A stretch of DNA of 64,000 nucleotides from Raillietiella orientalis (GCA_036172245.1 JAYWIR010000005.1:5580001-5644000); one strand, 5' to 3'. Positions 316 through 64,000 are shown, numbered from the stretch's first letter. Notes: generated from the sequence alone by a model not told the origin. Translations and numbers: made by a program.

Positions 316-393
316 CTGCAGGCACCAGAATCATAGTTGTCACCCTCCTTCCCCCGGCTGCCGGCCAGCTGCTTCGCGATCCGAAATGCTCAC

Positions 394-515
394 CTCCGTG
401 TCCCCGTTCTCAGGAGTGTTGCCCACGTACAGGGCGTTCGGCAGCTTGTTGGGCCTCATCGGTCTTTGGAAGCTGTCGAGGAAGACAGCATTGTTGTGGG
501 TGCCAGTTGGCTTCT
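394..515 (-). CDS. Internal exon of the same gene (phase 1 to 0)
   Basis: Acceptor gtttcctttcaccAG (517-516) and donor GTGAG (393-389). Open frame (E)KPTGTHNNAVFLDSFQRPMRPNKLPNALYVGNTPENGDTE joins in frame to exon 315-1 across a 78-nt intron (316-393). Confidence 0.75.
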
Positions 516-690
516 CTGGTGAAAGGAAACATCAGTGAGGGGTTCGCTTACGAGTAAGCGCGCGCTTGAGCGCACGGTCGTGCGGAGAATGGGGTAGAAA
601 AGAATAGGTGATGGCGGACAAAGATGACCTCATGCTCCAGCAAGAGAGAACAGAAAACACTAATCATCAGTCAATAGCGGGCTGATGGGT

Positions 691-719
691 GGGGTGTGGG
701 CTAAATAAGCCCACACCCC
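691..719. repeat. Perfect 12-bp inverted repeat (hairpin), intronic
   Basis: GGGGTGTGGGCT-aaata-AGCCCACACCCC. Confidence 0.85.
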
Positions 720-3700: not shown

Positions 3701-4068
3701 TTACGAAATAGGAATAATTGGAAAGGGTCAAATGCATTCAGCTGCCATGAACGCAGTGCACGGTCCCATTATCCCATAAAAAAGAAGTTAAGAGACAAAG
3801 CGCGAGCGCGGTTCTTCTGGTGTCGCTCTAGGCACGCAGCCAATTTCTCACGCAGCGTGAAGGACGATGCTTTTGAGGAAGCCGAGTAACGGGGACTGTG
3901 GGGACCAAGACGTTTCTCGCGGAGGCAAAACGACCCTCCCTAAGGAGGGCTTTGACATTCCCGCGCGAGAGGTACGCCGGGGGTCCAGCAGCGGAAGTCA
4001 CGTCGGCATTCGTCAGGCGGAGGGGAGCGCGGAGGAAGAAGAACACGAATCCGACCGCATCCACTTAC

Positions 4069-4158
4069 CGACGATGATCATCTCTAGCCCGTTCTTCAGC
4101 TGCTTGGTCGACAGGATCCTCTGGCGTGCGTTCCTTTCAGAAGTCTCGTCGGAGTTTT
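4069..4158 (-). CDS. 90-nt symmetric (phase 1-1) exon of the same gene
   Basis: Acceptor gtgtatctctAG (4160-4159) and strong donor GTAAGT (4068-4063). Encodes (E)NSDETSERNARQRILSTKQLKNGLEMIIV, which resembles a segment I recall from insect DUF4758-type proteins (RKILATKxxxNGVEVIV). Phases match both flanking exons. Confidence 0.8.
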
Positions 4159-8900: not shown

Positions 8901-11900
8901 GTGACGGTCAGCTTCTGCTTCTCTTGGATGCCTCGGTCACCTCCTCCATGGGAGAAAGGAGTCAGGGCATTGGGCTGGAACCCCTTCTTCCGGTAGATCC
9001 TGGCCCTCCTTCTCTCGCTGAGCCTTTGGGTGGGGTAGGCGGAGGTAGTGGTTGGTTTGCGGAACCTCCTCCTCTGTGAGAAAGTTGGTCGCTGTTGTTT
9101 CCGTGAGAGAACTGAGTCCGTGGTCGGGGTCGTGCGTTGTTGTTGCTGCTGCTGCTTGAGGCTTCCCCTGCGGGCGTTCCATCTATGCGTAGGCAGCGCC
9201 GGGGATGAGGGGAGATCTGACTGCTCCTCTTCCTCTCCCGGCCGCGTCCTCTGGAAGTCTTCCGCCTCCCTCTCGTTCCTCCTCCTCTCCACGAGGCTCC
9301 TCCTCCTCCTCCTTTGCCTGTCCACCAAGGTTCTGTCCTCCTCCTCATCAGTCTCCTCTTCTGAGGCGGAGGCGGCAGTCGTTGTTGTCCTCTTGAAGAG
9401 AGGGTTCCTTCTAAGCAGGGGAGGTCTGCTGCGAGGCGGAGGGACCGAATGAGTAGTAACACGGTCGACCTCCCCTTCCTCTTCTTCCGAGACGACTGCA
9501 GCAGCGGTGGTCGCTGAGGTCCTCGGTGGTCGTGTAAACGGTCTCAAGGTCCTGCCGCGCGATCTGCTCAAAAGCTCCCGGAACCTGTCCACTGGCCTCT
9601 CCCGAAGCGTGAAAGCGGGTCGGGATCTAGAGGCCGGGTTTCCACTGGGGTCGTCAAGCTGCGCTTTCTCAGTGGTGGCGGCGCCGAAGATGGAGTTCTC
9701 TGCGTACTCTTCCTCCGTCCTCTTCTCGTCTTCCGGGATGTCTTCGGGATCCGCCGTTGTGGCAGAGTCATCTGCCCTGTTATCAGGGGTCGTAGGAACC
9801 CCATCCTCGGTTCGCAGTAACTGCTGAGGATCCCTGCCGAAGGACGGCTGCGTCCTCCTCCTGGCGAAAAAGGCGGACGTGATCCTCCTGCCAGTGTCTT
9901 GGGGGGGTGAGTCCGCTTCCCCGCCCCTACGTTTCGGGAACGGAGGGCTCACATCGGGAGACTGTAGCTGCTGCTGCTGCTGTTGAGTTCTTCTGGCGGA
10001 ACCGAAGGCGACGGCGCTGCCCACAGAAGAGAACCTTGGGCGAAAGGAGCGTCTGGTGAACTCTGGGGGGTTCGGGGAGGAAGGGGAAGGGGACAAGAAG
10101 TCCTGCACCTCCGGCCCGGAGGCTGCGGAGGAAGAGCCGAACTTGCCGCGGAACCTTTTTGTGGGCACCACGGCGACGGCGGCAGTCGCACGCTCGGGCT
10201 CGTTCTCAAGAGCTCCCACTTCCTTGCGGAACCCGAAGGACTTCCTCCTGGCTGCGCCACTGGCAAAGGAGGGAGGCTCGCGAGCACTGCTCGGGGGAGT
10301 AGCCACCAGGGTGGGTCGGAAGGACTCCCTGGTGATAATGGCGGCGGCAACGCTAGGAGAAGGTCTGACCCGGTTGCCGAGGAACGAGGGTCTCGTGCGG
10401 GACTTGAAGGGACGGATGAAAGGGGTGAACGCCTGGGTGCTCTCGGCATCCGTTGACGTCGTAGAGGTCGTGGTAGTTGCAGTCGCAGCCTCCTCTTCCT
10501 CCTCCTCCTCCTCCTCTTCTTTCTCCTCCTCCTCCCCTGCAGCAGCCGCCAGAACAGTAGCCGTTGTCGAAGAAAGGTCGACTCCTTCCTCCTCCACGCC
10601 TTCAGGGGACGCCTGCACGGGATCCGTCACCTCCTCCGTTTCGCCAATGTCGTCGGCGACGACGACTTTGGAGGTACTCTCCACCACCTGGGAGTAAGTC
10701 CCTCCGATGGACGTTCCCAGGAGGCGCGTCTCGTAGAAGGTGGTCCGTCCTGTTTGGACGATGGAACCTGTGATGAGACGGATGAGGCCAAGGGGTTCCT
10801 CAGGGACGGAAGTGGACCCCGCGTAGTCTGGGTCGACCTCGAGCCTCGAGGTGCTCTCGATGACCTGGGCGTACAGGCCACCCACGTACGTTCCCAGTGC
10901 GCGGGTGGTGTACACCACCGTGGACGGTTCCTGGATGATGCTGCCCAAGTCTATGGAGATCAGTCCGAGAGGGTGTTCTCGTTCGTCGTCGTTGTCATGA
11001 ATTTTCGGGGGTTCGCGAGGCAGTGGGGGAGTTGCACCCTCGTTTATTCCTTCCTCTTCATACTCTCTTCTCCCTTCCTCCGTCGTGTTCTGGTCCTCCG
11101 TCGCCGACGGTGTGGTGCCATCGCTGTCTCCGTCTTCTGAAGATTCTTCAGGAATAACCTCGGACGGGGGAGCAGGATGCAGGGTCTCCGTGACCACGTT
11201 AGTCACCGTCTGCAAACTGCTCTCCACGATGCGGCTGCCGTCCACGAAGGAAGTCGTGAAATAGGTGAACGTGGTCAGGTAGGTGACCAGTGAGAGTTCG
11301 TCGTGGTCGCCTCCACCGTCACCGTCGTCCGAGAAGGAGTCCAGCAGGGTGATTGTCGCATCCTCCTGTTCGGCTTCTTCTTCCGTAGCCGTCTGCCACG
11401 AAGGGTAAGAATGCTCCTGCTGCTGCCCGTCTTCAGCATTGGAGACGTCTTCCGGGATCGCTCCCTGCGTGGAGTCCGGGTCGCTTTCAGCGAAACCATG
11501 GGAGATGACAGAGCTCTCAAGCTCCTCGCCACCACTACCTCTGTGGTGGTGGAAGCGGCTGAGGTCCTCGGAGGGAGAAGGAAGAGAAGGTGGAGCGGCC
11601 GTCGTCACGGGTGCAAGCTGCTGCTGCAGCGGGGTGGAGGACGAGAAAGCTCGATGTCGGGAAGGAGGACTGGCAAAGAAGCTGCCTCGAAGCGAGGAGG
11701 GTAACCTCACTGAGCCGAGACCTCCGCCTTCTTCCGCCGTCTGCAATCCAGAGCGGACGGTCTGCCCTCTCAGGAGAACGTTCGTGAACACCTCGTAAGA
11801 GGTGTTGACCACCTTCTTGCCGCCGGAGAACTTTGTGCTCACATAAGTGTAGGTGGTGTACAGGGTGGACTCCACGTCGTCAACCGTTGCCGTTGCCGCC

Positions 11901-14037
11901 GTATCCTGCGTGGTGGCAGCGTCATTAAGGTCATCTTTCCGAGAGACCAACATCCTCTCCTCCTCCATCACCACAGACTCCTTCGGGAAAGAGGCGGTGA
12001 GGGAGGGGAGCGACGGGGAAGGGAGAAGGGTTTCGGTTGCCACATCGACCGCGGTTCCTCCCACTACGTTCGTGATCACCTCCGTCGACGTGCTGACCGA
12101 GGTGGACTCGCCGATCAGGAAAGTGGTCAGGTACGTGTATGAGGTGTATAGCGTCCTGATTTCCCCTTCCTCGACGGGATAGGTGTCTTCGTCGGTCAAG
12201 TACGGCTCAAAGGAGTGCAGAGGAAGCTCACTCTGCTGTTGCTGCCTCCTCTCTTCCTCGTTTCCATCCTCTTCATCCTCATGCTCTTCTCGGGAGGCGT
12301 CTATCCGCGGCCGTTCCGTCTGCTCGCCTTCCGCGGAGGCAGGTCTTTCCCGCTCGCCGCCGTCCTCCAGTTCTGCCGTTTTATCCTCGGAAGAAGCAAA
12401 AGTTCCCATCGTTCCTCCCTCTCCTCCTCCAGTTGCTCGTTCTTCGCTGCCTTCGCCGTGGTTTCCGCGCTCATTGGTCAAGGTGCTCCCGAGTGACTCA
12501 TCCTCTCCAAGGTCGGCAACGGGAGTGATTGCAGACGAAGGCGGGACTGTTCCTGTACCCTCGGCGGCGCTGCGTTCCAGAGAATAGAAAATGCTGGACG
12601 TGCTTTGGATGACCTGGGCGTAGTGATCGCTGATGAAAAGCCCACTAATGAGCGAGGTGAAAAGGGTAGTGGTGCCTCGGTTGATCACAGTGCCCCCGAT
12701 AGACGTGATGAGACCTGTAGGGAACGCCTCGGAAGTGTGATAGACCTCGGTGGATATCGTAGAGAATGCTGAGGTCCCCGCTGGGTCTGCGGTTTCCAAG
12801 GAAGTTCCTTCCTGGTTGTCTTCGTCTCTACCGGGCTGCGCTTCGATCACGAACGCAGGCTGCCGCTGTTGCTGCTGCTGCTGTTCCCGACTCCGAGGCT
12901 GCTGTTGGTTGTCGAAGGCGCCGTCTGCATCTGAACCGTGAGGAAGGCCGTATATCCGGTGCGGGGGAGGAGAGGTTGCTTCTTCCGTGGAGCTCAGAAG
13001 TATCTTGGGGCTGAAGACGTGCTGTTCCTTCTCTTTCTGGGAGGTCTCCTCCGTCGTCGCTTGAGCCGGCGTCGATAGAGAGGAGACAGGGCGAGATGGT
13101 GCCAGAGATTCGGATGGAGGCTGCGATCCCAAAGGCGGAATAGAGGAGATGACCAGGGACCTTCCGATCTCGGACTTGGGCTTAAACACGACCTCTGTGC
13201 CGCTTATAGTGGTGGTGAAGTCGGCGAAGCCCACGTAGGTCACCCGCGGCAGCCTCGCGGCGTGCCTTGGGACAGAAGAAGGGCGACTGCCTTGGAGGAG
13301 CGGCTCGGGGGCTGCAGCCCTGGCGTCTCGGCTTGCACCACTGCCCGAAGAGGAGGTTGCGGAGAACTTGGCGCTCACAGGTCGCGGGTTAATAGCGTCC
13401 TCTTCCTGGATGAGAGGGCTGGCCTCCGGCTGACCACCTACAGGGCTTTCCAGGACGCTAGTGGTTGAGATGTCTTCCTCACGAGCGTGCGAGATGTTCT
13501 GAGTCGAAGTATCGTTTTCTTCTACTCCTCCTCTCCCTCTTTTTTTCGGGTGGTCTCTTCCAGGCTCCTTGGATGTCGCCTCTTCGCTTGGCTGACTCAG
13601 GGGCCTGGTGGGACGTATAATTTCCTGCGTTTCTTGAGGGAGGATCACCCTGGAAGTGGTCGACAGAAGCTCAACATGCTTTCCGTGGAGGCGAGCTTTC
13701 CGAAACTCAGTGGTATAGGCCAGCAGGGTGTCGCTGCTCCACAGAGTCCGGCTTTCCACCGAGCGGGGAGGCCCCGATAACGGGTCTTCGTCGTCGTCAT
13801 CGTCGTCGTCGGTCTCGGGAACCTGTCGGTACAGAACCGAGCTCCGGCTAAACACTCGGGAGTGCGAGCCGTCGACCACTGTATTTCTGACCACTGTCGT
13901 GTGCTCAGTGGTAATCCCTGAGTTCAGAAAGGTCCCCACTGTCGACAGAACCACACCGGGCGCCCAGTGACGGCGCGTGCCGGCGACAATCCCGAACTTC
14001 AGGGTAGTCTTCAGCCCGCTGGCTTCGCTTCCAGGTT
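5923..14037 (-). CDS. Giant exon (8,115 nt, about 2,705 codons) of a DUF4758-type repeat, Ser/Thr/Glu-rich mucin-like protein
   Basis: The frame of ORF 5828..13954 stays open upstream to a CTAAC branch point (14069-14065), pyrimidine tract and AAG acceptor (AG 14039-14038). The donor GTAAGT at 5922 follows ...LESS G. It contains repeated GL(I/L)x..GxxIxxG.TTx(F/Y)xT..G...YAQVxxSTS modules (12584-12721, 10841-10975, 10664-10795), a VTYVGFADFTTTISGTEVVF motif and YTTYTY-type modules. Family assigned by motif recognition, not by search. Confidence 0.88.
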
Positions 14038-17000
14038 CTTGGCCAGGGGGAACAAAAACAGGCAGTTAGAGAGACAGACCTGGAAGGGACCCGACCAGGT
14101 GCGGGGAAAGAAGAAGACAGAAACAGGAAGGCCGGAAGACGCTTTGCGCAGGCGCGGGGGGTGCGCCGAAGACGACTTGCGCCGGCGCCCATCTTTTCCT
14201 GCATTTTTTTTTTCGTTTTTTGTTCTTGCTTTTTCCGGGAAGAAGGCCGCGCTCCGGGACGTCTCATCCAAAGAACCAACCAAACAAAAGCGTCTGCCTC
14301 GCCTACCTGCTGCCCTCACAAGGCGGTCGCGGCGGCTCCCGGACTCCGAGCCATCTCCATGGTCCCCGCACTCCGGCGTGGATCCTCCAAACGTCGCCTC
14401 TATCGGAAAAGAACAAACGTTTGATGGAAGGTGGAGACAGTGGCCAACGGGGTGGAAGGACGAGACCGTCCCGACCACCAGGAACGCAATGCTCCGCGGA
14501 GTCGCGAAGCATCCCGCGGCCGCGTGTTGAGGATGCTCTCGACCGTGCACTCCTGTTTCTCTCTGTTTCGCGCATGCGCACGGTTCCTGAGGGTCCTCAG
14601 AAACTGCGCTCGGCACCCGGGCGGGCGGCTCAGTCCATCCTCTTCAAGCGGAACGGGCGGCCACGACGGCAGAGACGGCGGTCGCAACAGGGGGTGAGAG
14701 AGAAGTAGCGAGCCGCAGGAGCGGCAGCGGCCGCTGTCACAGCGGCGGCGCACGGAATCTGGCCCCGAGGGCAGGAAGAGGAACGACAGGGACAGGAGCA
14801 GGTCAAATGGACAGAGGGAGCTGCAGCAGCTCTTCGTATCTTTTATCTACCTCCGAGGTCAGCGGTTCCAGGAGGTCTTGAGGGGCGCTTGAGCGTTTCT
14901 CATCTCACTTAGCTTGGGATGGAAAGGAATGGAGGTGGTGAGCGGGGGCAAAACGAGAAGGGCCTGCTCCTCCCGGATCCTGCGCATGGTGTCTCCCGAC
15001 ACGGGGTAGACCGGGGCTAGCTCGGAAGAAAGTTCTTCCATCCTCTCCTTCCTATCGCAGGAAAGATAAACGGGGGGCAGGGAACACTTCTCCGGGACGA
15101 CGTTCCTCGCGAATCCACCCTTCGAGGACATTTCTCCCGGTCCGCGGGAGGGGCACCAGCGAACGCTTTTCATTCCCCTTAGGCTATGCTCCCACCGGCG
15201 TGGCGGCGCGCGAGCGTGCGGGGGCGGGGGCTGCAGTTCCGTGCGGCAGCAGTCGCCGGAGGCGGTCCACGTCGCTTGTTGGCTGCTGATCCTTCTCGGT
15301 TTGCAAAGGCGGTTGTCAAGGAGCGGTCCTCGAGAGACAAGGGAGATGGGGAGGTCTCAGAAAACTTCCCATACGGAGAAGACGGAGAGGAGTCTCACCC
15401 CCTCAGTCCACGCGAGGGGAGTTCCGCCTGTACCGAAGGGCGTCCTTTCCTGGGAGGAGGAGGAGGAGGAACCAAGGAAGAGTGCGACAGAGAGTTGGGA
15501 AAAGGTCGGAGGAAGGGGATGATGATGAAGGTGAGGTGAGGAGGAAGTGGAAAAAAAGACGTGCGCTGGTGGCAAGGGAAGAAGAAGAAGAAAGGCCAAG
15601 GAGCAAAAAGTCTCGAACCACGTGGGCTCCTAGATCTCTGCTAACACGCGCTCGGTCAGAGGCACCCTGTGTATGGTCAGCTCTCCCTCTCTCTCGGGGG
15701 GATCAGTTCTCCTCGCGCCGCGCCCTAGAGCGAGGTAAGGGATGGAGGAGGCGTCTGGAAGGATGCTATGGGATCAAGAGGAGATCGAGAGGAGAGCTCG
15801 CGCACTTCCCTGTCTGAGAAGAGGATGGGAAATGACTCTTGGGAGGATGGACTCATCTCCGATGCGCTATTCCACAGAAGAGCAGTCTGCGTCTCGAAAC
15901 AGCGACAGGCAGATTCCGGGATGTGCGCCCTCCCTATTTCCCTTTTCGTGTGTCTCGATCCAGCCCTTCTTTCCCCCCCTCTCAATCTCCCTCTTCCTTC
16001 CTTTCTCTCTCGCCCCTTCCTTTTCTTTCCCTTTCTCCTTTCTCCCCCCTCCCCTCTCTTCTGTTCCTTCGAGAGCATTCCTTCGAGCTTTCCCTTCCGT
16101 CCGCCTGCGGAGAACTGCGCCGGCGCTCGCCTGCTGTTGGATCCAGCGGGAGGGAAACTGCGCCTCCTCGTTTCGCCTCTTCCCCTTCGTACATCTCGGA
16201 GGTCCAGGGATCGCTCACCTCCTCACGACCTTCCCCAGGTCAAGGACGTTATTGAATCCTGCTCTTCGAACCGAACAAACCCCGAGGAACCGTGGGTCCA
16301 CGAAGGGGGCGGAGGAGACAGATGAGAAGAGGAAGCGGCGGAAGTGGCAGTAACGAGGGAAACCGAGTGTCGTTTCCTCCTCGGGCTCCTTCTGGCTGTT
16401 GTGCGACGCAGCACCGAGGGCACCAAGGATGGGAGCAGCGGTGCGCCAAGGAGAACGCCGAAGAGGGCAAGGGAGGAAGCAAGGACGAGAAGCTCACGGA
16501 TTCCCTATTGAGAAATCCATCTTCGCGTTCGAAGGACGGAAGCTGGAAGCATGGAGTCGCATCCCCGAAGATGCCAGCTGGTTGGCTCCTTCCTCTGCGT
16601 GACGCCTGAGGCTGCTCCTCGGCAGGCAGAGGAAGGAAGGAATGGCCGCCAGCATTCCTTGCAGCAGAGACCACTCAGTCGAGCATCTCTTTGCTGTTTT
16701 TTCCTGACCCCGGCTGAGCGACGGGGAACTCTATGAGATGCCCGCCTTCTGAAAGCCGGGATAACCGGGAGAAGGATGCTATTGCGGTGGAAATATGCCT
16801 TCTCTCTTTCAACGCGCGGTCATCCGCGGACGGGGCAGATGGCTCGCCATCTCTGGGATGCTGAACACTGCAGCAGCGTTCAGTGGGCGGCAAAAGCCCT
16901 CTCCACGCCGCCTGAGCTACCCGTGAGAAATACGACCGCTCAACCACTGGCACAGTCCAGATCGACGCCGCTTTTTTCGGTTCTCTGCTGCTGCAGCCTC

Positions 17001-47300: not shown

Positions 47301-50300
47301 AAATTCTGGACAAAGAGGCCTTGCATCTCTTCTAGAGAGATCACCGCACAGACGATGTTCTCTGTGAAACCTCGGCATCTCTGCAGGTTCTTTGGTTTAG
47401 CTTTTTCACTGTTCACTTCCTCTAAGAAACTGCTGCCTTTTCACTCTTTTGCGAAAGGTGCGGGATGCTGCTTTCCTCAGTAGGAGATTTAGAATGGAGC
47501 CGAGGTGACGACCATAGGAAGCATTCAAACTGCTGCATCGTGGGAAGAACATCCAGAATATTTTTTACGACTCGGAGGACTTCTTCGGGGAAAAGCAAAA
47601 GTTGAGACAGAAGAGGTGAGGCAAGAGCTCCTGGCCGTAAGAACGACTTTTCTGGTTTCCTCACCCGTGTGCTGACCTCCTCCACGCGTTGCTGTGACGA
47701 CGGCCAGTTTCGCGTCTCCCAGGGACATCATGTAATGTTCCTTCCCAAGTCCTCCTTGCACGACTTTGGCTGGCCCTTCTCGAGGAGGCTCTTGACGTCC
47801 AAGAATGATGCTCTGTGCGTGGATTCAGAGCCCTTCGTGAGACGTCCTCTGTCTAGGATCTCCCTGGTTTGACGCTCCGAGAGAAGAGGAAAAGATGCAC
47901 ACGAACCCGAAAGCATCTTCACAGGCAGGAATTCTCCACGTAAATTACTCAGATCTCTTCAAAGGGATGCTGATTTTTCTTCTGCTCAAGCGAAGTAGCC
48001 AATCAGATGAATCGAGTCCGACTATAGGCCTTCTTCCGTTCGGCCGTAGGTTCTTCTAGGCGGCAGTCAGGAGCACGATGGGGTCCTACTACCAGAGTCA
48101 TACCTTCCCTTAGGAATGCCGTGGGTGTTGACTAGGAAAACGACCAAATTCGGCAGGTCGGTGCGCGCCGTCGATACCATGAAGTTCGATTGTCACTATG
48201 GATCCAGGACTGAGGACACTGAGCAAAGCATTCCTGTGGAAAAAAGGACTTTTTCTTGGAAGAGTTATTTATGGAACGTCAGACGGTCTTATCTGAGGAA
48301 ACTATCGAAGACATATGCTTATTGGAAACAGACTTCTAGTGAAAGTCAGAGACCACTCCAAAGAAATCATCGACACCTCCGGCGACGTTCGACATCCGCT
48401 GGGAGATCCGTTTCGCATAGTGATTTCCCTTTAGCTTTGCGAGTACGCAATGCTTCTTGAAGTAAGTTACAAACTTCAGATTCCCAACATTTCATCAACT
48501 GGAAATCATTTCTGATCCGTTAGCCTTCTGCTTTCGACAAATAGAAATCCCTACGACGAGTTCCCTGGATTTGTGACTAAAGTGCCGTTCACTCTTAGTA
48601 CAAGAATAGCTCTTACGAGGAGGTGAAGCCTCTTAAAGAATGCTTTCATGTGATCGGTCTTTGCATGCAGCTCAAGGGGGTTGCACTGCCCCTTCATCAG
48701 AAGAATGACCTAGCCTGTGCGTCCAGTAATATCTTTGCTGTACTGGTTGTATGCCTAGTCTTCGCCCGAGTCGAAGGATTTCCATTTTTGGGGGGGAATT
48801 CATCGCCTTGGGAGATCCCAGGAACCCAGCAATTTCTAAACGCAAGGCTTCGAGTTTAGAGGAGGACGGATAGACAACAGCCTTTTCTCTATGTTCCCCT
48901 TTCTCTTTTCCCTGGACTCTGTTGCACCCAGCTGCAGTGCTCTCAAAGGGGCAACGGTAGTCAGTAACTAAGCTCCTGTACTCCTGTGTCCTGCTGGATT
49001 ATGAGGTTCGATAAAAACGGTAGATCCAGATGTGAAATTTCCTTCAGTCGACGCATCTCTCAATGACCACCGTTTCAAGCGCTCGACTAAAGCTCGACTA
49101 AAGGTGTCATCCTTTTGGTACATTGACGAGAATGCCACACACAGGCGCTCAACGTGTGTAGTAGGGTCTCATCTCACACCAGGCAGTAGTTGTACGAGTC
49201 ATCTTCCGGTTTTCTTTGCGCAGATCGGTGGGTAGCGGGAAGACTGAGTCGTGCTGCGGGGACAAACCTAAAGTACAATAACCTCAGGTGTTCGCCGCTG
49301 GAGATGAATTGGCTTGATACATAGTGTCGTCCAGCTTCGGAAGCGGAAAAGTAACGTGGGAGAGGAATGGCTCTCAATGGCGAGTGCTGCTGGGGAAACC
49401 GTGAGAAGCTGTCCCATGTTAAGCAATAGAATGCTCTTTGTGGGACTGAGGTCCCTTTCTGGATGTGCAGTCATGTCAGGAAGTGGGACAAAACGGGAAG
49501 CAGTTCATTAGGTGTAAGAAATATGGAGACTTCAGAGAGTGGTCAGGTAAGTTCTTGAAAACTCGGGGCACTGTCACTATCTGAGGATAGGCAAGGGGAG
49601 GTCGATAGATGGAGAGTACGATGTACCAGCGATTCCAGCCAGTAAGCATCATGAGTGCCTTAACGAGGAAGATGAATTTTCTTGAGAAAGGGGAAACTTT
49701 TTAGGAAAGTATGAGACAATAGGGAGGAGTTTCAGGAATATTTCTAGCGATGTATCGGTGAACCATCGTAGTGCACATTAGCACGTGTGTTCGTGTTGGA
49801 TATATGGAGCTGAAATTTACCTTAGTCGTTATGGATCTAAGATTCAAGACCTGATCCGACTGCTCTCATCATGATTTCGATCTGATGGAGAAGAATCTGG
49901 GATGCAGTCTCAAATGAAATGCATCCGGGGCTGCATTATGCATTGCAGGATTATTTGGCATGTGCTCGTGGCAATGTAGAAGTCATGCGATTCGTATTCG
50001 TAGTCAAAGTAGCGTGCTCGCTCTGCTGTCCTTCTGAAGGTCAAGAAGAAATTACCTTAATGTGCACATTGGGCTTCGATAGTGCCAGTGCTATTCCATC
50101 CAGTGTTTCAATACCGTGCCACCTTCAGTAAAAGATTTAAATGATCTCAGGGATGGTTCAGTTACCAAGCAGGTCAAGCATAGAATTGCTCCACGGTTCG
50201 TGAAGAAGAAAGACTTCCAGCTCCGCCGAGCACTGTTGCCAGCAGAATAAAGAGCCCAAATAAATTACGATGGGTGGTGTTTCGAAGATGCGCAAGTGAG

Positions 50301-53300
50301 GGTCACTGAAGAAAATCGCAATCTCCAGCGCAATTTCCGCCATGAAAGTTCTCATCATCAAGGAGGCAGGGGTAACCTTTCATCCTTTTCATTTCAACAG
50401 CCTTGCGAAAGTTCCAAACCGGCTTTGACTTAGTAGCTGGTTGACTCCTAAGAGGAAACAGTTCTTGGTTAACTCATCCCTGTAGTTTCGGGCGCAATGA
50501 TGGCCATTTCTTTCCATGCAACAGTGACCAGAGCTCTGTCAGGGAAATGTGAAAGTGCTTCATTAAGAGTCTTTGACGCTTCCCCCGAATTATACGCAAT
50601 GCCAGTCATATTAGAAATGAAATCCATCCTGGGAAAGAAACCCCGTTGTTCATATTCAGTTTCCCCACATTCCATCTTCGAGATCAGTTTCAAAATTTCG
50701 AAAGAATCGTTAAGCTTTTGAACTCCAAGGGATGCCCTTGTATTATCTGCCTGTATCTGAATTTCAGTTATCTACCAACGAGTTGGATTCTGCGGTAGTA
50801 GAGACTTCTTAAAGGCATCGGAAAAACTTCTCAATTGGTCCGTTAGCTTCGACGAGTTAACACCAGGTCGTGGTGTCTTGGAGCCATTTGACAATCACCT
50901 CAGAAGTTCTCTTCCGGATGTTTTGGATTTCCAGAGGGATCAGTGCGGGGAAACCCTATGCCCAACGATGAAAAATTCCAATCCGAAATCACATGTCACG
51001 TGTAGGATGGAAATACCTCTCGTCTACATCGGCAGAGGGATGCGTGCGTCAATACCGGACCTTTTGTGCCACTGCTGACGTTCCTTCGAGGTCGAGCGGA
51101 CTTACGAATCAAGAAGTCATTTCACCATTCTGTATGGCACCAGGCGATGCGAACGCATCTCCACGCAAGCTCAAGAGTCTCTTGTGATGACCATGGACAT
51201 TTTCAATTGCGCCATTCCTTTCGGAAGGGGTGGCACCGATTTAAGGAAGCGACGCGTAAGTAATACGAGGCGGCATTTAGAAGTCATTCCTGCGGTGGCT
51301 GAATCATGCAGCAATTACATTTCGATGACAAGCAAAGAGGAAAGTGAAGAAGACTGCTGAACAGGAAAACAGGCCACGTCAGAAACCTACGGTAAGCTCG
51401 CTTTCCCGTTCAGGAGGAAGCGCTCTTGATCTCCTTGGTTCGGCCATTTCGTGTATTTCTTTTGGAAACACCACGCAAGCTTTGATAGAGATGGATAGAG
51501 ACGCTTTTCCAAACCTATATGGGTCTTCTCTACTAACACTACAGCCTTTCCTCTGTTCGAATACATGCCAACTATGGAATCTTCAAATCTTCAATATCTT
51601 ATTCAACTAATTCGACCAATGATCATTTGATGGAACATGCTGAAGAATCAACAGAACCTACAGTTTCAAGTCCTGCTACTGAAGTCCAGTTAGAGTCTGA
51701 GACTGTTTACTAGGGGTCTTGCTCGTGCTCTTCTACTTGCTCTGTTGCTCTGCTGCCTGGTATTGTAGATCAAGAGCCAGTGAATGTCTTCTCCTCTGCT
51801 ATTCTCCTCTTGTGCTCTCTTTCCAGTCTCCACACACAAATCAGCCTTCCAGCTTGTTTGTTGATGGTTTTCTTCTTCATATGCCATTTGGAAAGAGATG
51901 GTTGTGGATGCTTTACCAGAGAATTCCACTTTTGGCTCTCTGTATCTCCTTTCTTCGAACAGAGAATTACAAGACCTCATTAGCTGCCATGGCGTTTTGA
52001 AAATAAGGTGCTATCACCACTGCTATTGTGTCAAGATGTCTGCAACACTGTTTACCTGATATGTGTCAGCTGGGTATCTTCCATTTGTTCGCTAGCTAGA
52101 ATTTCCTTTCTAGCCACGGTGTTTTTAGCACGGTCATGCCTACAGCTAAAGGCGAAGCTTCATTCCTTTCAAATGATGTCCAAAGTGTGCCACCATTAGA
52201 TTGCAATGATCAAGCAAAGGCTAAAAAATCAATGACGCAGCTTCATAACTTGCGAGCTAAGGGAGAAGAAGGAAAGAAAAATCCTAAAGTATTACGGCGG
52301 TTATTTTGAAAACAATGTTTTTTTTCTTTTATCATTGCTTTTTGAGATTTCATTTTCATTTCGCTACTAGCCTCAAATTAGTGGCATCGTTTCCATAAGT
52401 CTGCCTCATTTTGGTCCAAAGACACTGTTAAATGAGATTAGCCATCCAATGTCAGGCGCCCTAGATCATTAAAAAAAAACTCTTAAGTGTTCACTGTAGC
52501 ATCAATGAAAGTATGGTTCCTGCATAACCAATTTGTTTTATGGTGATCTAGGAAGTGGAAATATCTTTCCAAAATGGGGGTTGCGTGGGCGGCCGCGAAA
52601 AGAAATGCAACCCAAAGTTTGTGTCTGCACAGTAATCGATCTAAGTGTCCAGAACTCTATAAAGTTTACGCTTGGACATCAGATGGAAATTCATGCTCAG
52701 ATTTCATTTTCAAAACATACCAGGACTTTGAGCCGACGCATGCTGCTTCGATCATCACGCTGGTTCATTGTTGCATCATCAAGTGCATTGTTGACATCGG
52801 GTGGTTGCTTTGGTGCCGCCGGGCTCATCGCCTTGGCGTTCGGTCGCCATGTTGGAGTATTCTTAGTCGTTAAGGTCGTTCTATTGTTAGGTCATTAAGC
52901 TTCATTATTGCTACGATACTGCTAGGGTAGTTATGGTTACCGAGTCGCGTACTACGCTCGCAAGCTCCCTGTGAGATTAAAGATACCTTACGCGCTGTTT
53001 CGAACATGAACTGCCGTATTCGATCTTCTGTGTTTCGAAACGCTTCCCTTTTTCGTTCATGCTTTTTGCTCTCAGCCACTGAGCCGGTTTTTACGAATTG
53101 CACGCGAAATCTTCATTCTTTAAGAAATGGTTACGCTAAATGGGGAAATAGAACAATGGAATCCATATGCTCTTTACACCCAAAATAATGATGCTTGTGA
53201 TTTCCTTCAAGTGGAAAAGCACATCTCTCGAAGTGCCTTTATTTCTTTTGAGATCCTTTATGTTGTTATTCATGGGAAATGTCATGATAACCTGAATCCG

Positions 53301-55523
53301 AATTCCAGCAAAATTCGACTTTTGATCTCTGCTCCCCAATGCTTGGGGTACGAGGATCTGATTTCTCATTCAAGTGACATGTTATTTGATATTCTTACCT
53401 ACTTACGAATTGAAGGGTAAAACGAAAGATGTCTCCTGAAAAACGATGACCTCAATCTTTGGAGCTGCTTGTTTAGGAGGGGAAAAAAAACCCCCAGAGA
53501 ACTAGAGAAGCAGGCCATTGAGGAGGCAACCAAAATCGCATAAAATACAAATCTCATCTTGGAGATCGAGTTGCCAGTGTGTGCTTGGCATACGAAAACA
53601 GCTTACTGAAGCTAATTTCCGAATACCTCACCCGTTCTTAAATCTCTCACTGAGTCGTGTTTCTTCGTTTTGATTACCAAGCACAAGTTTAAGTTCGCAG
53701 GAAACTTCAAACACAAAGGAAGCAGCTGCCAAGCACCGGGTAACAATTATGAATGTTAGGGACTCGAACCTTAGGAAGAGTTGCAGTTGATACAGAGTAA
53801 GCACTACTCACAAAGCTATTAGTCCAATTATCGGTTCCCACGTTTCTTCGCCTTTTCAAATCAGCGTCTTCTGGAAATCACGGCAGCTGAGTTTCGGTTC
53901 ATTCCTTTGACCTAAGCCCACAAAAATATCAACCGCTTCTCTGTTGAGGGGATGACAGCGATGGATTGGCGTTTATGCAGCATTTGTGATCGAAGGTACT
54001 TCAACATATGTGGAATTCATGGATGGGGCGAACGAGAAAGTAAAGGTAGTGTTGCTGGTCGGAAAGCTGGCCAAGTCGAACGCAAACTGCCGTTGGGTTT
54101 TTTTTTCGTGCAGAGTTCGGGAACACGGAATCTTCATTCTGTAGAAGCCCTGCAGCACCAGGCTTTTGTGTCGGTATTGGTCCTCAAATTTTGTGCAAGT
54201 GGCCTTTAATTTCCTGGATTTGTTCTAAACTTGCTATCATTTCCAGCCCGTACTTTTGCTACATGGCGCCTTAATTGCTGGGGTGAAAGAAAGGTCAAAT
54301 GGAAAAGTGGAAAAATTGACATCAAAATACTTTAGGGATGAAAGGAAGTGGGGTTTGAAGAGCCATGGATCCAACCAAGTTCGATGCCCAAGACACAGAG
54401 GTTTCCTCGTCTTCAGAATCAATCGTTGTGAAAAGAAAGGCGACTCAATTTCCACCCAAGCTCATGTCCATCCGCATGGATGGACGTCGAGCAAAATAGA
54501 TGCTCTGATTTATTGTTTCTTGTGTCTGAAAAACCAATGTTGCATTTATCATCTGACTTGATTTCTCTTGCAAATGATATGATAATTTATGCAGTGGATG
54601 CGTACATAGAGGTAACGGTCTGGAACACAAGGCTCTGCTGTAATTGAGGAGACCTCTCTGCCTTCGGGCTACAGATGCGCTTTTCGTTCTGAGGTTTGCC
54701 TGTAGAAGATTGATTTACATTTTGCCTACAACAACTCTAGGGAGACTCAGACGAATTAAACAGAATAACAACAAAGGTATCCACGAACGATAAGCAGATG
54801 CAAGGATTTGCTTTGCTTGGGTTTCTGTTTCAACAGAAACTTCGGTTTCAAAGAACATTAAGTAAAAAAAAAAAAAAAAAATCATTCCTCCCTCTGCATA
54901 AGTGCATGCAGCTGTTTTCTTTTGGAGTGAAAATCCATTTGCCACCTTTGACTTCCTTGCACGCGAACCTTGAGGAAGAAGCAATTCAATTCTGTAGAAG
55001 ATGCGACTTGCCTACCTGGGAAACCCTGGCTTCGTAGACAGCAGAGCTCGTCCTTCTCAGTTGTGCTGAGGAGACCCACAACCAGGCGAACGGTTCGGAC
55101 ATGTGCTGCTTCGGCGCGATTTTAGCGACTGAGAGGTTGGTTGCGGTTCAAGGAGAGTGAAGAAGGCACATGGCACAATCCAGGACAGACTGCAGGGGTG
55201 ACTGATGTTCAGGACGTTCATTTTAGAAAGACTCCATTTCTAACCCATATGTTTGCATCGTGTAGCTTTTCTCATGTCCTTGTATATTGTATCCAGGAAC
55301 CCGTCACTTTCTCAAGACGTCGCGTTCTGTTCAAGCAGTCAGAGACCTTGTTCCTTCCTACTTGAGCTCGACCCCGACACTTACTGATCCAGGAGGGGGA
55401 CCCGATCATTCCCTACTGTGTTCACATCTCAGATCGCTTTACCTAAGCACAATACACCTTCCTCTCCTCACTACTAAGAAACAGAAGCAGCAAGCCATCA
55501 TCATGCTCTCTAACGATGGATGT

Positions 55524-55723
55524 CCTTCAACGTTGTAAGTTGACTGAGGCCAATGGTAGTTCGAGGAATGTGATGCTTAGGAATGTTTATAGAGGGCTGT
55601 TTAAGCAAACACATCGTCCCTCTGAGAAAAAAACATACGAACAGTTTGCAAAAAAGACGCAGGGTAAACGAAGGAGTACATGAAGAATGGCTTAAACAGC
55701 TTCACCATTCACTTTGATGGAAC
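55524..55723. repeat. 200-bp direct repeat, copy 1 (at the element's 3' end)
   Basis: ccttcaacgttgtaagttgactgagg...cattcacttt(g/a)atggaac aligns without gaps to 59040-59239 with 7 substitutions; similarity stops sharply on both sides. Confidence 0.97.
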
Positions 55724-55808
55724 TTATTTAGCATTTTGGATTAATACAAAAATTGCTGCTGGGATGGCTCTGGAGCATCTTTCGCGAATGATGTTTCCTC
55801 CGTGTTCT

Positions 55809-56520
55809 TCACGGTTTCTCGGTGCTCTCTTCCGGGCTGAGAGCATTGTCCAGGTCATCTGGTTGGGCTGCAACCTTTTTCCTTCTGACCTGTGCTGCAT
55901 AGATGCTACTTGAGAAGCGGATCCAGGTGGCTACCATCCGCTGTCGTAGCCTGATCGGCTTCTTCTTCGGAATTCCTAGGTATTGTAGAACGTTGTCGTT
56001 TTCAGGATCCCATGCTCCAGGCGAGCCGACGATGATCGCCTGCACTTTGGTTATTTTCCCAGTGTTTCCGAGTTGCATGGGGACATCATGGTATTTGGCC
56101 TCCTTTGTTTTCCTCTATGTGGTGAACGCCTCCTTTCCGTTTTCAAATGGGCAGGAGATGTCCAGCACACCTATTCGATCGCTTTTCTCTAAAACCAGGT
56201 CTGGTTTTAGGGTGGAGGTGGTTCCTGGCACTCTGCGATTACTTGATACCAGAGTCCACTTGGCTTCATCCGTTGCGGCCTTCTTGATCATTTCCAGGAT
56301 AGCATCATGGCGCTGCATCGTCAGAGGCGCGTGCTTTTTGCATCTGTTGAGCACGTGTGATAAAGTCTCGTCCTCTGTTCCGCAACGCCGACATATGAAC
56401 GTTGTCATGGACCTTCTTCGATTTAGTGGCAGAAGGTTCAGTCTTGCCGCATGGATGAAGCTGTAGTCTCGGTATCTTAGGTGGATTCCGTTTGTCTGGA
56501 AGAAGCTTGAAGAGTGATGC
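55809..56520 (-). pseudogene. CCHC zinc knuckle and PD-(D/E)xK restriction-like endonuclease domain, disrupted
   Basis: CRRCGTEDETLSHVLNRC, RHDAILEMI, LKPDLVLEK...VLDISCPFENG, an in-frame stop at 56115-56117, then RKTKEAKY...AIIVGSPGAWDPEND to the stop at 55809. Confidence 0.9.
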
Positions 56521-57239
56521 ACGACCTTCCACACACTGCATGGCCTTCCCTTGACTAACGTGGTTTTCAATGAGGGATTGCCATGCGTGTTCTCGCTGCA
56601 ATGCTCTTACGCCGGAGGCGAGCCGTCTTCTTGCACTGCTGGTGAAGAGTGTTCCGTCCACCGTGGTACTGGGTTCTCCTTGTCGAAACTCCCAGAGGGC
56701 TTCTGTTCTTCTAGAGGTCTCCCTGCCTTTCGACCAGAGGCTCTCAATATCCCATCCGGGCTTTGTGATCTTCTTGTCCGTCGTGAATTCCCCGAGATTC
56801 TCATCTGTCGGGGCTTTTTGTATCCGTGTTTGGACGATTTCATGCAGGGTTGTTTTTGCAAGTTCACTTACTGCTTTGTCTGCCGACGTAAGTAGTTTGA
56901 AGCAGCTGTCCACGATGAAGGTATCGGACTCTTCAGCTAGCTTCATTAGTCCTCTCCTATCGGACTCTTCTTCATTAGTCCTAGGCAGCCTTTCGTTCTG
57001 TCTCCGTACAGATACTCGTTTGCTACCCAGGATGGTAGGTGAAGGGCCTTCTTCAACTTCTTCCTTAGCTGCTCGTCGACATACTGCCATTCCTCCTTCC
57101 GGTGAGCTATCAGCCTCTCGTAATGAACCAGGCTGGGATCGAAGAAGGTTTTCATTGCGTCCATCTTCTGCCATCCTGAGAGTTGACTCTCAAGTATGGC
57201 TTTCACTTTCTGGCAGATGTCTTCCCTAGTCAGTTGTAT

Positions 57240-58394
57240 GTTGAAGACCCTCATACCGAAGGGTTTTCCCAAGTATTTGTATGCCTGTGATAAGGCAATA
57301 CAAGGGATTTTCCCTTCCTTAACCCGGATGTCCACGTCTCTTATGCCTTTGGGGGTTCGGCCGCTGTAGCATATCGAGGCTCATTTTGCCGGGTTAATGG
57401 ATAGGCCGGCTTGGTCGACTAACCTCTGGAAATGCGCATCATTTGCTGGACTTTCTTTTCGTCCTTCCCCCCTATGACGATGTCGTCTGCATAGGCTAAT
57501 GTTGCCTCGTCCCCGTAGTTCTGCCTCATCGAGCGCAGAATCGGCTCAATCGATATAATAAAAAGGAGTGAGCTTAAGGGACATCCCTGCCTCACTCCGT
57601 GCCGCACGGAGAAGGTCCTAGTTTCTGTGTTTTCCAGTTGAACAACTTCCTGTGTTTATCTCTTGAACGATATTTATTATTTCTTCCCCTGCCCCTGCTT
57701 CATTCAGTGCTCCCATGATAGTGTCATGGGAGACTGTGCCGAAGGCATTCACGAAGTCGATAAATACCGTGCAGAAGTCCTTTGACAAACGACGTGCAGC
57801 ATCTAATCTTATTTGTAGGATGAAGTTTTGTTCAAGCACTCCATCAAAGGGCAGGAAGCCCTTCTGTTGGGTGCCAATAACTTCATTCTCCAGAATCCAT
57901 CTTCTGAGTCGAGAGGCCAAGTATTTGGCATATAGCCTGTAGGCACTGTTGCCAATGGATATTAGCCTCCAGTTGGAGATGTCATCTGCTGCTGCGGGTT
58001 TTTTTGCTATGAGTACCGTTCTGGTACACTTCCGCTCTTCTGGAATCCGATGAAACCTTTTTAAAATATTGAAAATTATTGTGAGCATTTCGGCATGTGG
58101 ATCAATGCTCTTCCACCCGGCGTACGTGATTCCATCTTCTCCGGGAGATGAGTTCTCCGCATTGCTCAGTATCGCCTCTACCTCCTCTTGGGCGAATGGA
58201 GATAGGTCTACCGGGGATGTTGCTTGGGTTCTTTCCAGCAGTATCTTCTTGGGAAGCTCTTTGTCAGCTTCCTGTTTCATTTCAAGTTCATTTCGAAAAT
58301 GCCTTTCAACTTTCTCAACTTCTAACTTACAGGTCGCGTCCTGCTGGCCTAAAATCGCTCTAAATGCTCTTCTTCTATTGACGTTATAAAGCTT
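57240..58394 (-). pseudogene. Reverse transcriptase domain of the non-LTR element, disrupted
   Basis: RT motifs are split over ORFs 57618..58280, 57419..57607 and 56946..57335. There are frameshifts near 57620 and 57420, a TGA replacing the Cys of NPAKC, and eroded motifs (IPEERK for typical P..WK, NWRLIS for NWRPIS). Confidence 0.92.
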
Positions 58395-59039
58395 TCAGAT
58401 TGACGATCTGTTGTTCGGGTCAATCCTTAGTTTCTTCCCGCCTTTCCTCTCTGTTTTTACTTTAAGTATTTCCTGGATTTTGAGTTTCACCTTTTGATGT
58501 ATCAGAAGGAAGTCCTCCCAGAGAGGGCTTTCTTCTTCCAGGATACTTTGGAGATAGCTTTTCTCCTCTACGAGCTTGGAGGCGTAGTTCGCCCTCCATG
58601 TCCACTTTCCTTTTTTGCCTTTCGGTTTCCATATCTTCTGTAAGGCTTCCATTTTACTCGTTCCTTCTGTAGGTTTTTCATGAGCAACTGTGGCTGAAGG
58701 AGAGGAGACGAGTGGTCTAGGAGGAGAGGAGAATCACACCATACTTTGTAATCAATGGGAGAGGGTTGCAATTGCTTCTTTTCGGTGTTTTCATTCATCC
58801 GATCTTTAATCAGAGGGCCTATAAATGCTTCCAAGTTGCCAAACAGCCCTCCTTCGTCTCCTTCCTCCAAGGGGGGCATCTCGGATAATGATCTCACCGA
58901 GATATCATCTTGTTTCTTTGCTCCCTCAGCATTCCTTTTCTGTTTTTGTTCTCCAAGTGTATCAGAGGCAGGAGCTTCCGTCTGCACCATGCTTCCTCCG
59001 CTGGCAGGTTGCCGCCTCCCAGCTCGTTCATACCAGCAA

Positions 59040-59239
59040 CCTTCAACGTTGTAAGTTGACTGAGGGCAATGGTAGTTCGAGGAATTTGATGCTTAGGAAT
59101 GTTTATAGAGGACTGCTTAAGCAAACATATCGTCCCTCTGAGAAAAAAACATACGAACAGTTTGCAAAAGAGACGCAGGGTAAACGAAGGAGTACATGAA
59201 GAATGGCTTAAACAGCTTCACCATTCACTTTAATGGAAC
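59040..59239. repeat. 200-bp direct repeat, copy 2 (at the element's 5' end)
   Basis: 193/200 identical to 55524-55723 by manual alignment. Confidence 0.97.
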
Positions 59240-62200
59240 GGAAAGGGAATAGTGGTTTCCGTGAGGCCATCATGGAGCCTGACCGTTCAAGTCTACTGCT
59301 GCAAGTAGGAAAGCTGAAGTGCAGGGCATGTGAAGCGCATCACGAAAGAACGAGTGGTTGTTGGTGAAGAAAGTTTCTTCTCTCACGCAGATGTCTGACG
59401 AATGAAAGACCGTTGCGAATATCATTTTTTCCCCATGTTCAGAAGAATACACAAGAGTGGAAATTTTGTAGCTTTTACTGCACAATCCGTTACCAAGGTG
59501 CTCTTTAGGACCGTGAGCTTAACAAGCGTCGCCCACTCCCTGGAATGATGTTTATACCGCTTTTCCGGACAGAAGGCCACTGATTCGAGGTTTATGACAA
59601 CATCGGGAATGACTGCACATTTCTTTGGGGAATGCGAAACGGAGGTCAGCGGTACACCGATTCCATCTTCACTTCCTGGTTCCATTCGGAACTTGTTTTC
59701 CAGGCGGTCCGCAATGGAGGCAGCAGTCATGCATTTCAGTTCGACCGCTCGCTTGTTTTGGAGCTCACTCGTGACTTCAACTTTCTTCTGAAAAAGAATT
59801 CAGCCATTTATAGATTTATTCCTGAAAAAAAGCAAAGAAAAGAAAGAAAGAACAAAAGAGGAACAGTTATCTCGAAATTCCCCGAGCAAGAATAGTCCTT
59901 CATTTTGGTTCCTTACGTGCTAAATTGCATGACACTGATACTCGCAAGGTCCTTCGGTCTGAAAGGAATTCGCCTTGTGGTTCGAACGGAACGCAAACAT
60001 CTATGACGCAAGGAAGTAAATCCCGAGGGAAAAGCATACAAGCAGGCCGTCTGAGAAGGTTTCCTGTGTGCTGTCGGAGATGCTGTGCTCTTGCCAGGAG
60101 TTCACTCCCTTGACGGAGATTTTGTTCTGCTCCTCTACTGTTTACTCCCTTTTTTTTTTTTTTTTTCCAAGTGATGCTTTTCTTTCGTTCTTTCCTTTTT
60201 TTCCAAAAAAGAAAGCCGAGAGCCGATCTCCGAACTATCAAGCCGCAAATAGCGGAGCTCAACTTGGAACCATTCATTGTGACAGTAAAAGTAATTGACA
60301 TTTATCCGACTTCAGCGTGCTTATAGCTCATTTAAAAAGCAGGGGGGAAGAAAGCACGGTACCCTCTGATGTATCGCAGGCGTGAGGTGATAGGAAGGCT
60401 CGGAAGTTTGAATCCCTACACACACCAGCGATGAAATGGACAGGGAAGAACAATCGAACCCTTCTCGTCTGGAAATGGTGCATGTCGCTCCTTGTCGATT
60501 TGTTCCGAATGACCGCAGGATGATTCGGTACCGATTGTGAGCGATCAGCAAGGAATGCTGGTGTCCACTGTCCCATGGTTTCTTCTACCACCGCATGAAG
60601 TCGCAAAGCGGGTGCTTCTGCCTTATGTTTGTTGCGGAACTCAAGATGACCTGCTTTTTTTGTGGATCACTAGTGCGCTGCGCTTCCAGGTGGAAGCTCC
60701 ACTTGAGGAAGGCACACACAAAGCAGGGAAGCTGCTGCATCTTCCTAGAGTGTGGCCATCTGATTCTAGCTACTGTGCCTTTCGGACGAACTTCACGAAA
60801 CCTTTCTTTGCAGCACTGTTCGTTGTGTTTCCATGCGGAGGCAAGGACAACGGAATGGATACGAAATCTGGAAAGAGCAAGGGGGGAGACCGGCTTCAGA
60901 AGAATGGACTGCATATTTTTCTCCCAAAAAGGCGAGACCTTTTGGACTTTTTGGCTTCTGAGAGTACGTGACGGAGAACCACTCCGATTTGACCTTCTTC
61001 CTTAAAACGTTCCGGCGGAGCCCCTTCTCTTCTCCATTTCCTTAAATTTCTCAAATCCCCGTATACCTGGTCCCTTGAACGACAATCGGCTCGGTTCCAA
61101 GGAGGAGGGTCCCTCCTCTTTTCTCAAAATCACTTTCTCACCCGCATCCCTTTGGGTATGTCGCACATCTTCCTCTAGAAGATGTGCGACATGCAACATG
61201 TGCTACTTCCTGGTGCTACAATCTATGCTAGGAAAGGAAAATAATGCTTCATCTACTTCGGCATGTCTCATCGGTAGCAGGAGGGACGGGGATGGACGAC
61301 AGAGGAGATGCGTGTGAACGAAAACGTGCTCCAAGAGCTACCGCCTAGTTCCTTCCTACTGAGCTTCCCAGTTCGACGGCTTTTCTGCCTTCTTGTGTGC
61401 GATTCCTAGGAGCAACATTTCTTGCTGACAACAAATTCCACAACAGACGACAGTTCTTGTTCAAATCAAAACAACGTCTCAAGAAAGTCGTGACGAGGGA
61501 GGATGCATAAAGTGTTTCCCTCGGAACACTGGACGCAGGCACTGTACCAGAATCCAAGCGAACACCACATGATAAAAGCAAATACAAAGGAGTGGAATGT
61601 GGGTGGAAAAGTCGCATTCAGTGCCACTGCTTCACTGCCGTGTGTGTGTGGCACGGGTGCAACTTTTCCAACGACAAATTCAAACAAACAAGTTATCCTC
61701 AGCATCCTGGGATTTCCTATTGCACTTTCATAGAAGATTTCCCATGACAAATTCAAAATTTCCCAGCGCAGCAGTCTTCCAGGGGGACTCACGGAAGTCC
61801 ACCAAGCACAACGGGGGAGTACAAGAAGTTTCCCCAGGTGTTCACACTTAGCAACTGCACCAAATGCAGGCGCTAGTTGTTAAGCGAGGGGTGACCTATC
61901 CAGCTGACCCGATCAGGATTCTGATCCTCTTAAAGTTAGTGGACAGTTCCATGGACACAGCCTGAATGATGAGAAGTGTACAGAGCACAAATATTCACGT
62001 CTTTTCTTTGTTTTAAAAGATGACCCATGGCTATTCTTTTCTTTTTGTTAACTTGCAGCTCAAAGCTCTTTCTTTCTTCAGTATCGAGAGCAGAAAAGAG
62101 CGACGAATTAGTGGATGTGAGGAGAGAGGTCATCGTGAATCCTCGAGTGTTTTAAATGCCTTCCTTCTAGCAATGCGAAACTCTGCCAACGGCTGCTCAA

Positions 62201-64000
62201 AAAAATACACTATTGGTTCGACTATTGTAGGCATGGTACCATGTAGGTCGAAAGCTTCATCGAAAATCAGCGGATCCATCCTATTTTCCAGGGACACCGC
62301 CACCGCTTCACTTGCAATTCGTCCAACGTCACCCATCGGAAGTCAGACGGACAGGGAGCCGAAAAAGGATGGGATGGAAATTCTTCTTCCTCAGGCATAA
62401 TGCTGTCAGGCTATTTTGAAACTCCACGAGTTGAGCGGAGGATGGCAGCCGGATGCACTTGCATTCTCCATATCGACATCAAGATGCCATCACGCGTTCG
62501 AATTCAAGTCAATGGATTGTTTCTCTACGTGGCCGTTATCCGTGTTACGCTGCATGTGGAAGCTCAGGGAGATTGAGCTCATTCTTTTGAGATTTAGGAA
62601 ATCCTTTGTAAATATCGCCGCAACAGGCCTCGTCTCGGTTCTGCTGCTGCGTCTTCCCTTTACGTTTTTTCCTTGCAACGTTTAGATATGTAAGAAATAT
62701 GGATCAGGTCACCTGGATGGTCGGGTAAAAAGGCTCTATTGCTCACTTCCAGATTGCCAGCTTTCCTAAACGGATTCCATCTGTCGAATCAGATGCCCTG
62801 AGGCAAAGCGGATTCAGCAACCAGGAAGTGAAACTCATCTCTCAACCATCACGTGAACGGAACGCGTACTTTCCCCTTGTTCAAACTCGGCACTTGATTG
62901 ATTTCCAGCATGCCGGATAGGTTCGGGAAGGTCTGGGTGTATCCCCAGCATGAAACTGTTTCTTCCAGAGCGAAACTCAAAAGGATCGTCTGCTGAAGGC
63001 AACGGAGATGCGGGTCCAAATCGAAGTTCTCTTGATGGTCGAACACTGGGATGAGCAACGCCCGAGTTCCTTCACGTTCGCTTGGATAGCCGTACAGCAT
63101 GTACAGATCACTTTTAGCTGCATTGAGCAGAAAATGGTGCAAAGACTCTTCCAGATCACTATGTCGTGTCCCCAGAAGCAGAAATGATGCATGCATTTTC
63201 TCAGGGCACCCTTCAGCAGGCATTTTCCCGAGGGCGGAATGAAAGTACCTGGACCTCTCTGACTTCGCGAAACACGAGCGAAAGTATTTATCGTTTTGAC
63301 ACGTGCATTTTTCAACGCACTCCATATGGAACCCAAAAAAAAGTGACGCAACGTGCTCTGGCGTGAGTAATAAATGACTGCTCAGTCGTAAGCGTGGACA
63401 AGCAAAAGAGACAACCGCTTTTTTAGAACGCACACATTCCAGATTCGGTCTTCAAGGACTGACTCGTGTTCTTCCTGATCGCTGCTACGGATGATCTGGA
63501 AACACTGCACAGATGCAGAGCCTCTATGCGTTACCCATCTGCTTCGAGAAACGGATAACATAGATTTCGTACACTCCTACTTCTCAGCTAACTCTCTAGT
63601 GTGACCTAGATCAGTGACTCAAACTGTGTCGTTGGCTCTGCCTCGGCTAGAGTTACTTAAATATTTATTTTTTTCGGTCGGTGCAAATACATCTTTCCGA
63701 GAGGTTTCCGTTAAAGCATCTTCATTTTAGAAAACTCATTGACAGAGTCTGCTTTGCCTACCGAGGTTGGGATGGAGGAAGTGGGCACGCGGCGCACACA
63801 CATAAACAGACACGTTATGTAGGTACACAGTTGTATAGCGCATGTGTTGTGTACATCCAGCTATGGATATGAATTATATTTACGTATGTGCATGCCAAAA
63901 CTTTCTCGATATACATGCAGGTACATCATAGTAATATATTAGGACCCGCTTTTGTGTGTACACGTTACAAATGGCTGTGTACACAGTGAGTATCTACAAT

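Follow-up and report, generated by a model that had tools for sequence, protein, structure and literature searches.

Within the 64-kb window (the whole 64,000-nt stretch of Raillietiella orientalis DNA analyzed), a decayed R2-like non-LTR retrotransposon was identified on the minus strand, with both ends of its body exactly adjoined by the copies of a 200-nt direct repeat. The repeat unit is probably host DNA duplicated at integration, i.e., a target-site duplication (TSD) of unusual length. The locus comprises the following features, given in the direction of the element:

59040..59239, no strand assigned: repeat copy 2, flanking the element at its 5' end, identical to copy 1 at 193 of 200 positions without gaps
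55724..59039, minus strand: decayed R2-like (RT plus CCHC/RLE) non-LTR retrotransposon body of 3316 nt, identified by homology searches and tblastn
58988..58990, minus strand: likely ATG start codon, which would leave a 5' UTR of 49 nt
57618..58394, minus strand: longest open RT piece (258 aa), with an in-frame TGA before it (58397-58395)
56115..56606, minus strand: CCHC zinc knuckle and restriction-like endonuclease (RLE) region, ending with an in-frame TAG (56117-56115)
55809..55811, minus strand: TGA stop codon of the ORF, placed by reading frame and tblastn
55724..55808, minus strand: A-rich 3' UTR of 85 nt under the TSD reading, ending CTAAATAA
55524..55723, no strand assigned: repeat copy 1, flanking the element at its 3' end

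A repeat search of the window returned the 200-nt direct repeat as one family of two copies with a start-to-start spacing of 3516 nt, and BLASTN with 55000-59800 as query and the whole window as subject aligned the copies ungapped over 200 nt at 96.5% identity (E 2e-91), the seven mismatches being five transitions and two transversions. Both searches agreed with the initial annotation, which had described two ungapped 200-bp copies with 7 mismatches adjoining a coding body, and the 3' end that it had placed immediately before copy 1 was likewise recovered: on the minus strand, the last letters of the body read ...ATTAATCCAAAATGCTAAATAA and are followed at once by the copy 55723-55524. The repeat had also been called exact, which is correct for its length and register but not for its identity (193/200). 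The order on the minus strand is flank, unit, TTGCTGGTATG...body...GCTAAATAA, unit, flank. The edges of the repeat are sharp, since identity falls to chance level in the 60 nt upstream (21/60) and the 60 nt downstream (15/60) of the copies, and neither a short duplication nor microhomology was found at the outer junctions under the TSD model or under that of a duplicated 3' terminus. BLASTN detected neither a third unit nor a second element body in the 64 kb, and a sensitive short-word search with the unit returned the same two copies and a single 14-nt chance match.

These junctions bear on two further origins of the repeat. Break repair, endonuclease-independent insertion of cDNA into a staggered break, or a 200-nt assembly error would each be a quite improbable source: the copies differ at seven sites and are split by a whole element, making them a poor fit to a simple assembly overlap, and at both ends of the element the junction with the repeat is exact. 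The geometry of the locus, in which unit plus body give a consistent period of 3516 nt, would also suit a unit that is the element's 5' leader, the downstream copy then opening another element in tandem, the rest of which was later deleted. This is extremely improbable, as the deletion would have to end exactly at the unit edge, the composition of the unit is unlike that of the element's sense strand, and the 3' end of the body looks like a true terminus. A second element reduced to its start would also be truncated at its 3' end, and to our knowledge TPRT yields no such copies. Even taken together, origins other than a TSD or a 3'-terminal duplication are unlikely.

The coding signal of the body was confined to the minus strand. 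One of seven ORF pieces matched Pfam RVT_1 (E 6.8e-10), and the other six matched no Pfam family. Against solved structures, the RT piece matched R2 proteins best (E 2e-20 to 3.5e-13), with L1 ORF2p behind (2e-6), and among solved proteins a downstream piece aligned to residues 920-1029 of the R2 chain 9nl2_A (E 2e-8). Alignment of the CCHC/RLE piece, to which no Pfam model matched, placed a CRRC...H...C knuckle and a KPDL motif in register with R2 proteins. The features that define the type are therefore present, namely a non-LTR-type RT followed by a C-terminal CCHC and a PD-(D/E)xK restriction-like endonuclease, and the earlier label of an RLE non-LTR retrotransposon was borne out by the RVT_1 match together with the R2 matches of the RT and CCHC/RLE pieces. 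Neither Pfam nor the solved-protein matches revealed an APE domain in the element.

The open reading frame is heavily damaged. Matches from tblastn with full-length relatives spanned 58520 to 55887 and revealed frame shifts near 57640, 57415, 56960, and 56518, and an additional frame change was located between 58733 and 58568. With at least five frame changes and two in-frame stops (58397-58395 and 56117-56115), this copy of the element is dead. The ORF nevertheless spans about 1060 codons (58990 to 55811), and the ATG at 58990 would place approximately 199 codons before the KLYNVNRRRA motif compared to 198 in the relative P0001, a length derived from the alignment of query residue 1 to P0001 residue 199. 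Because the N-terminus predicted from this ATG, which lies 49 nt inside the body, matches that of P0001 in length, the body appears from its sequence to be coding-complete for a finger-less architecture also displayed by the relatives P0001, P0002, and P0045. These three proteins (~930-1070 residues, with a Met start) had no N-terminal zinc finger or Myb match, and long N-termini with fingers were identified in P0003, P0004, P0008, and the metagenomic relative L001, the C2H2 matches being weak in P0004 and P0008. The finger-less relatives may mark an R2-like sublineage or else represent gene calls on truncated copies.

Further members of the family were sought in protein and nucleotide collections. 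A profile-free search with the RT piece gave 10341 matches at E <=0.001 and 140 at E <=1e-30, the closest being 46% identical, and thus no same-family member was found among 1.84 billion protein representatives. A word-index protein search returned seven matches (best 43% identical), and an 81-aa plus-strand ORF across the body/unit junction yielded no protein candidate. Nothing in the index of other scanned DNA resembled the unit, the RT piece, or the locus as a whole, and an exact 34-nt pattern from the unit had zero matches in genome contigs. Related loci were absent from the candidate stretches of viral contigs (0/46) and prokaryote genome contigs (0/36), and one relative, L001, was present among 39 candidate stretches of metagenome contigs. 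L001 is R2-like and 38% identical, with an intact 1719-codon frame (252-5411) on a contig (1-5916) that stops 505 nt past the stop codon; no flanking repeat occurs within that stretch. Its 5' end (1-363) carries five repeat copies at a spacing of 60-61 nt and its 3' region is T- and C-rich. Comparison of the unit and the UTR with L001 gave chance matches of 9-13 nt only.

Features typical of R2 proper were searched for in the element and its surroundings. No rRNA or other Rfam family reached the gathering score anywhere in the window, and this included the ribozyme families, so that no HDV-like ribozyme was identified at that score. An Rfam scan of 55200-59600 with permissive thresholds gave five matches, all with E >=1.2 and none a ribozyme, at a sensitivity that a diverged ribozyme could escape. 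The two N-terminal ORF pieces matched no Pfam family, neither a C2H2 finger nor Myb, and their translations contained no CCHH pattern. On these sequence features the element is R2-like and not R2 proper, no zinc finger, Myb, ribozyme, or rRNA target having been detected. Pfam searches of 60 and then 100 flank ORFs gave nothing above the cut-off near the element and hence no host feature across the flank/unit boundary.

Other parts of the window displayed several features of their own. An uninterrupted stop-to-stop frame of 2745 codons at 5831-14065 (minus strand) contains three stretches matching Pfam DUF4758 (E 3.7e-47), described as a "putative sperm flagellar membrane protein," and is likely, judging from its sequence, to be a giant host-gene exon. 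The G+C content is 51-64% in 1-40000 compared to 43-47% in 48000-64000, which contains the element. No tandem array scoring >=200 was detected anywhere in the window. An A-run at 54851-54881 and a T-run at 60151-60181, of ~16-18 nt, form a weak inverted pair ~640 and ~900 nt outside the repeat copies, and may be the tails of older retroposed sequences.

Among the closest published parallels are BLAG 1-6, non-site-specific R2-like elements of the cockroach Blattella germanica at non-rDNA sites, with a different genomic environment for each copy (PMC7650587). These are 3215-3669 bp long with a single ORF of ~970-1070 codons, 3' UTRs of 132-241 nt, one or two N-terminal CCHH fingers, and a bipartite "Blag" motif; no Myb and no TSDs are reported (PMC7650587). 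The element described here resembles them in its 3316-nt body, its ORF of ~1060 codons, the domain order RT, CCHC, and RLE, and its non-rDNA site. It differs in that no N-terminal CCHH finger was detected and in that the sequence kinship is distant. Of the "Blag" motif, the ...YN.RR.A.R..L end alone was recognizable, by eye against the printed consensus. The 3' terminus offers a more specific likeness. All six aligned copies of BLAG 1 end ...CTAAATAAA, with the flanks diverging after it (PMC7650587, supplementary figure 3), and AATAAA-like ends occur in three of the six BLAG consensus sequences (PMC7650587, supplementary figures 2 and 3). This BLAG 1 terminus, CTAAATAAA, matches by eye the CTAAATAA with which the body ends, a match of one 8-mer against a distantly related family.

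The position of this terminus, directly at the body/unit boundary, bears on the principal alternative to a TSD. In that alternative, which is possible although clearly less likely, the unit is the last 200 nt of the element itself (giving a 3' UTR of 285 nt) and was duplicated upstream, leaving a pseudo-LTR-like arrangement of a 3' fragment followed by a full element. Such an arrangement could arise if the RT, having finished the full RNA, switched to another RNA at its 3' end, copied 200 nt of it, and joined the upstream DNA, or if another copy, lacking most of its 5' part, inserted in tandem. "Tandem insertion" 5' junctions of this architecture have been scored in cells (PMC11371274) and template jumping by R2 has also been described (PMC6895275). 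The present locus is like those R2 insertions in that a full copy is preceded, at its 5' end, by a 3'-end fragment. It is unlike them in that they involved engineered templates and the 28S site (PMC11371274; PMC6895275), and in that the inner edge of the fragment here coincides with a terminus-like motif, which template jumping does not predict. Under a 3'-terminal duplication the body/unit boundary would be an arbitrary truncation point, and the match of CTAAATAA would be a coincidence, the truncation having by chance to follow directly the 8-mer with which BLAG 1 also ends. The real end of the element would then be ...GTTGAAGG, which is not A-rich. The sequence also changes suddenly from the A-rich 85 nt to the T-rich unit.

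Length and base composition point partly the other way. A TSD would leave a 3' UTR of just 85 nt, shorter than the BLAG UTRs (132-241 nt), and a UTR of 285 nt would come closer to them. The AT skew of the unit is -0.18 compared to a minimum of -0.03 in 312 overlapping body windows, and at orders 1-3 its Markov log-odds lie under those of every one of the 32 body windows and within the host range, a comparison of limited weight as the body consists almost wholly of coding sequence. Composition is a weak marker of host origin also because the 3' UTRs of relatives are T-rich: the AT skew of L001 after the stop codon is -0.32, and the BLAG 1 UTR is T-rich by our own count on the printed sequence (PMC7650587). 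The likeness of the T-rich unit to these UTRs counts against a TSD and in favor of a 3'-terminal origin. RNA folding gave no structure signal in the unit, either alone (z +0.16) or together with the 85-nt UTR (z -0.47), although a 3' UTR that binds protein might be expected to show one. The last 147 nt of the body had a z of -2.2, with equally good folds in 3 of 200 shuffles, which carries little weight as one of five folds tried.

The TSD was accordingly rated highest on account of the family-typical 3' terminus at the body/unit boundary, the apparently coding-complete body, and the lack of a structure signal in the unit. The initial annotation had proposed a giant TSD; the structure on which it relied is real and its reading is the preferred one, while duplication of the 3' terminus, which it had itself named as an alternative, stays a live one. 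For the TSD we infer a host origin of the unit and the following geometry of the nicks. The plus strand would have been nicked at the present 55723/55724, its 3' end priming cDNA synthesis from the 3' end of the RNA (...CTAAATAA), and the minus strand would have been cut 200 nt away, at the present 59040/59039, its 3' end priming second-strand synthesis. Filling in of both 200-nt 3' overhangs would have produced the duplication, after which the element would have decayed and the repeat copies diverged by 3.5%.

A stagger of this length can be compared with published values for related elements. The staggers of R2Bm, R8, R4, and R9 are 2, 9, 13, and 126 bp, respectively (PMC6895275), and Utopia families have TSDs of 20 bp or none (PMC4640811). 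R9, an R2-derived element of bdelloid rotifers, inserts at a 28S rDNA site with its 126-bp TSD (Gladyshev and Arkhipova 2009, as cited in PMC6895275, PMC13486585, and PMC9977147). Like R9, the present locus is an RLE-type non-LTR insertion flanked by an exceptionally long duplication, but R9 has a fixed family TSD at the 28S rDNA site, whereas here the duplication is 200 nt, the flanks are anonymous, the window contains no rRNA, and one copy is known. The initial annotation had cited R9 as the notable long exception, a statement that is now out of date given the de novo insertions of Dualen-4b_cRei in mutation-accumulation lines of Chlamydomonas reinhardtii, whose flanking duplications have a median of 900 bp (PMC9977147). 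Very long staggers thus do occur, and 200 bp is not the longest for RLE LINEs. Dualen-4b is similarly an RLE LINE flanked by a duplication much longer than usual, yet it is algal, carries both APE and RLE, and has duplications of variable length, in contrast to the present element with no detected APE. Among the published values compared, a 200-bp TSD would be the longest for the R2 superclade.

As a single dead copy whose family lacks a close relative in the libraries covered, and with long duplications known from other RLE LINEs, the locus is a lead rather than a discovery. How non-LTR retrotransposons cleave the second strand is still an open question, and the 126-bp duplication of R9 has been named as a case worth study (PMC13486585). 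If a second R2-like lineage also made very long staggers, comparison between the two would help to show where the second cut is placed. The initial annotation had suggested such a stagger as a family-level property and related it to nucleosome spacing, and neither suggestion drew support from the present analysis. That a finger-less, non-rDNA R2-like lineage regularly nicks the second strand ~200 bp from the first is distinctly unlikely on present evidence; if it did so, each insertion would carry a roughly nucleosome-sized TSD, the longest fixed in the R2 superclade, which would point to a distant second protein subunit or to chromatin-guided cutting of the second strand.
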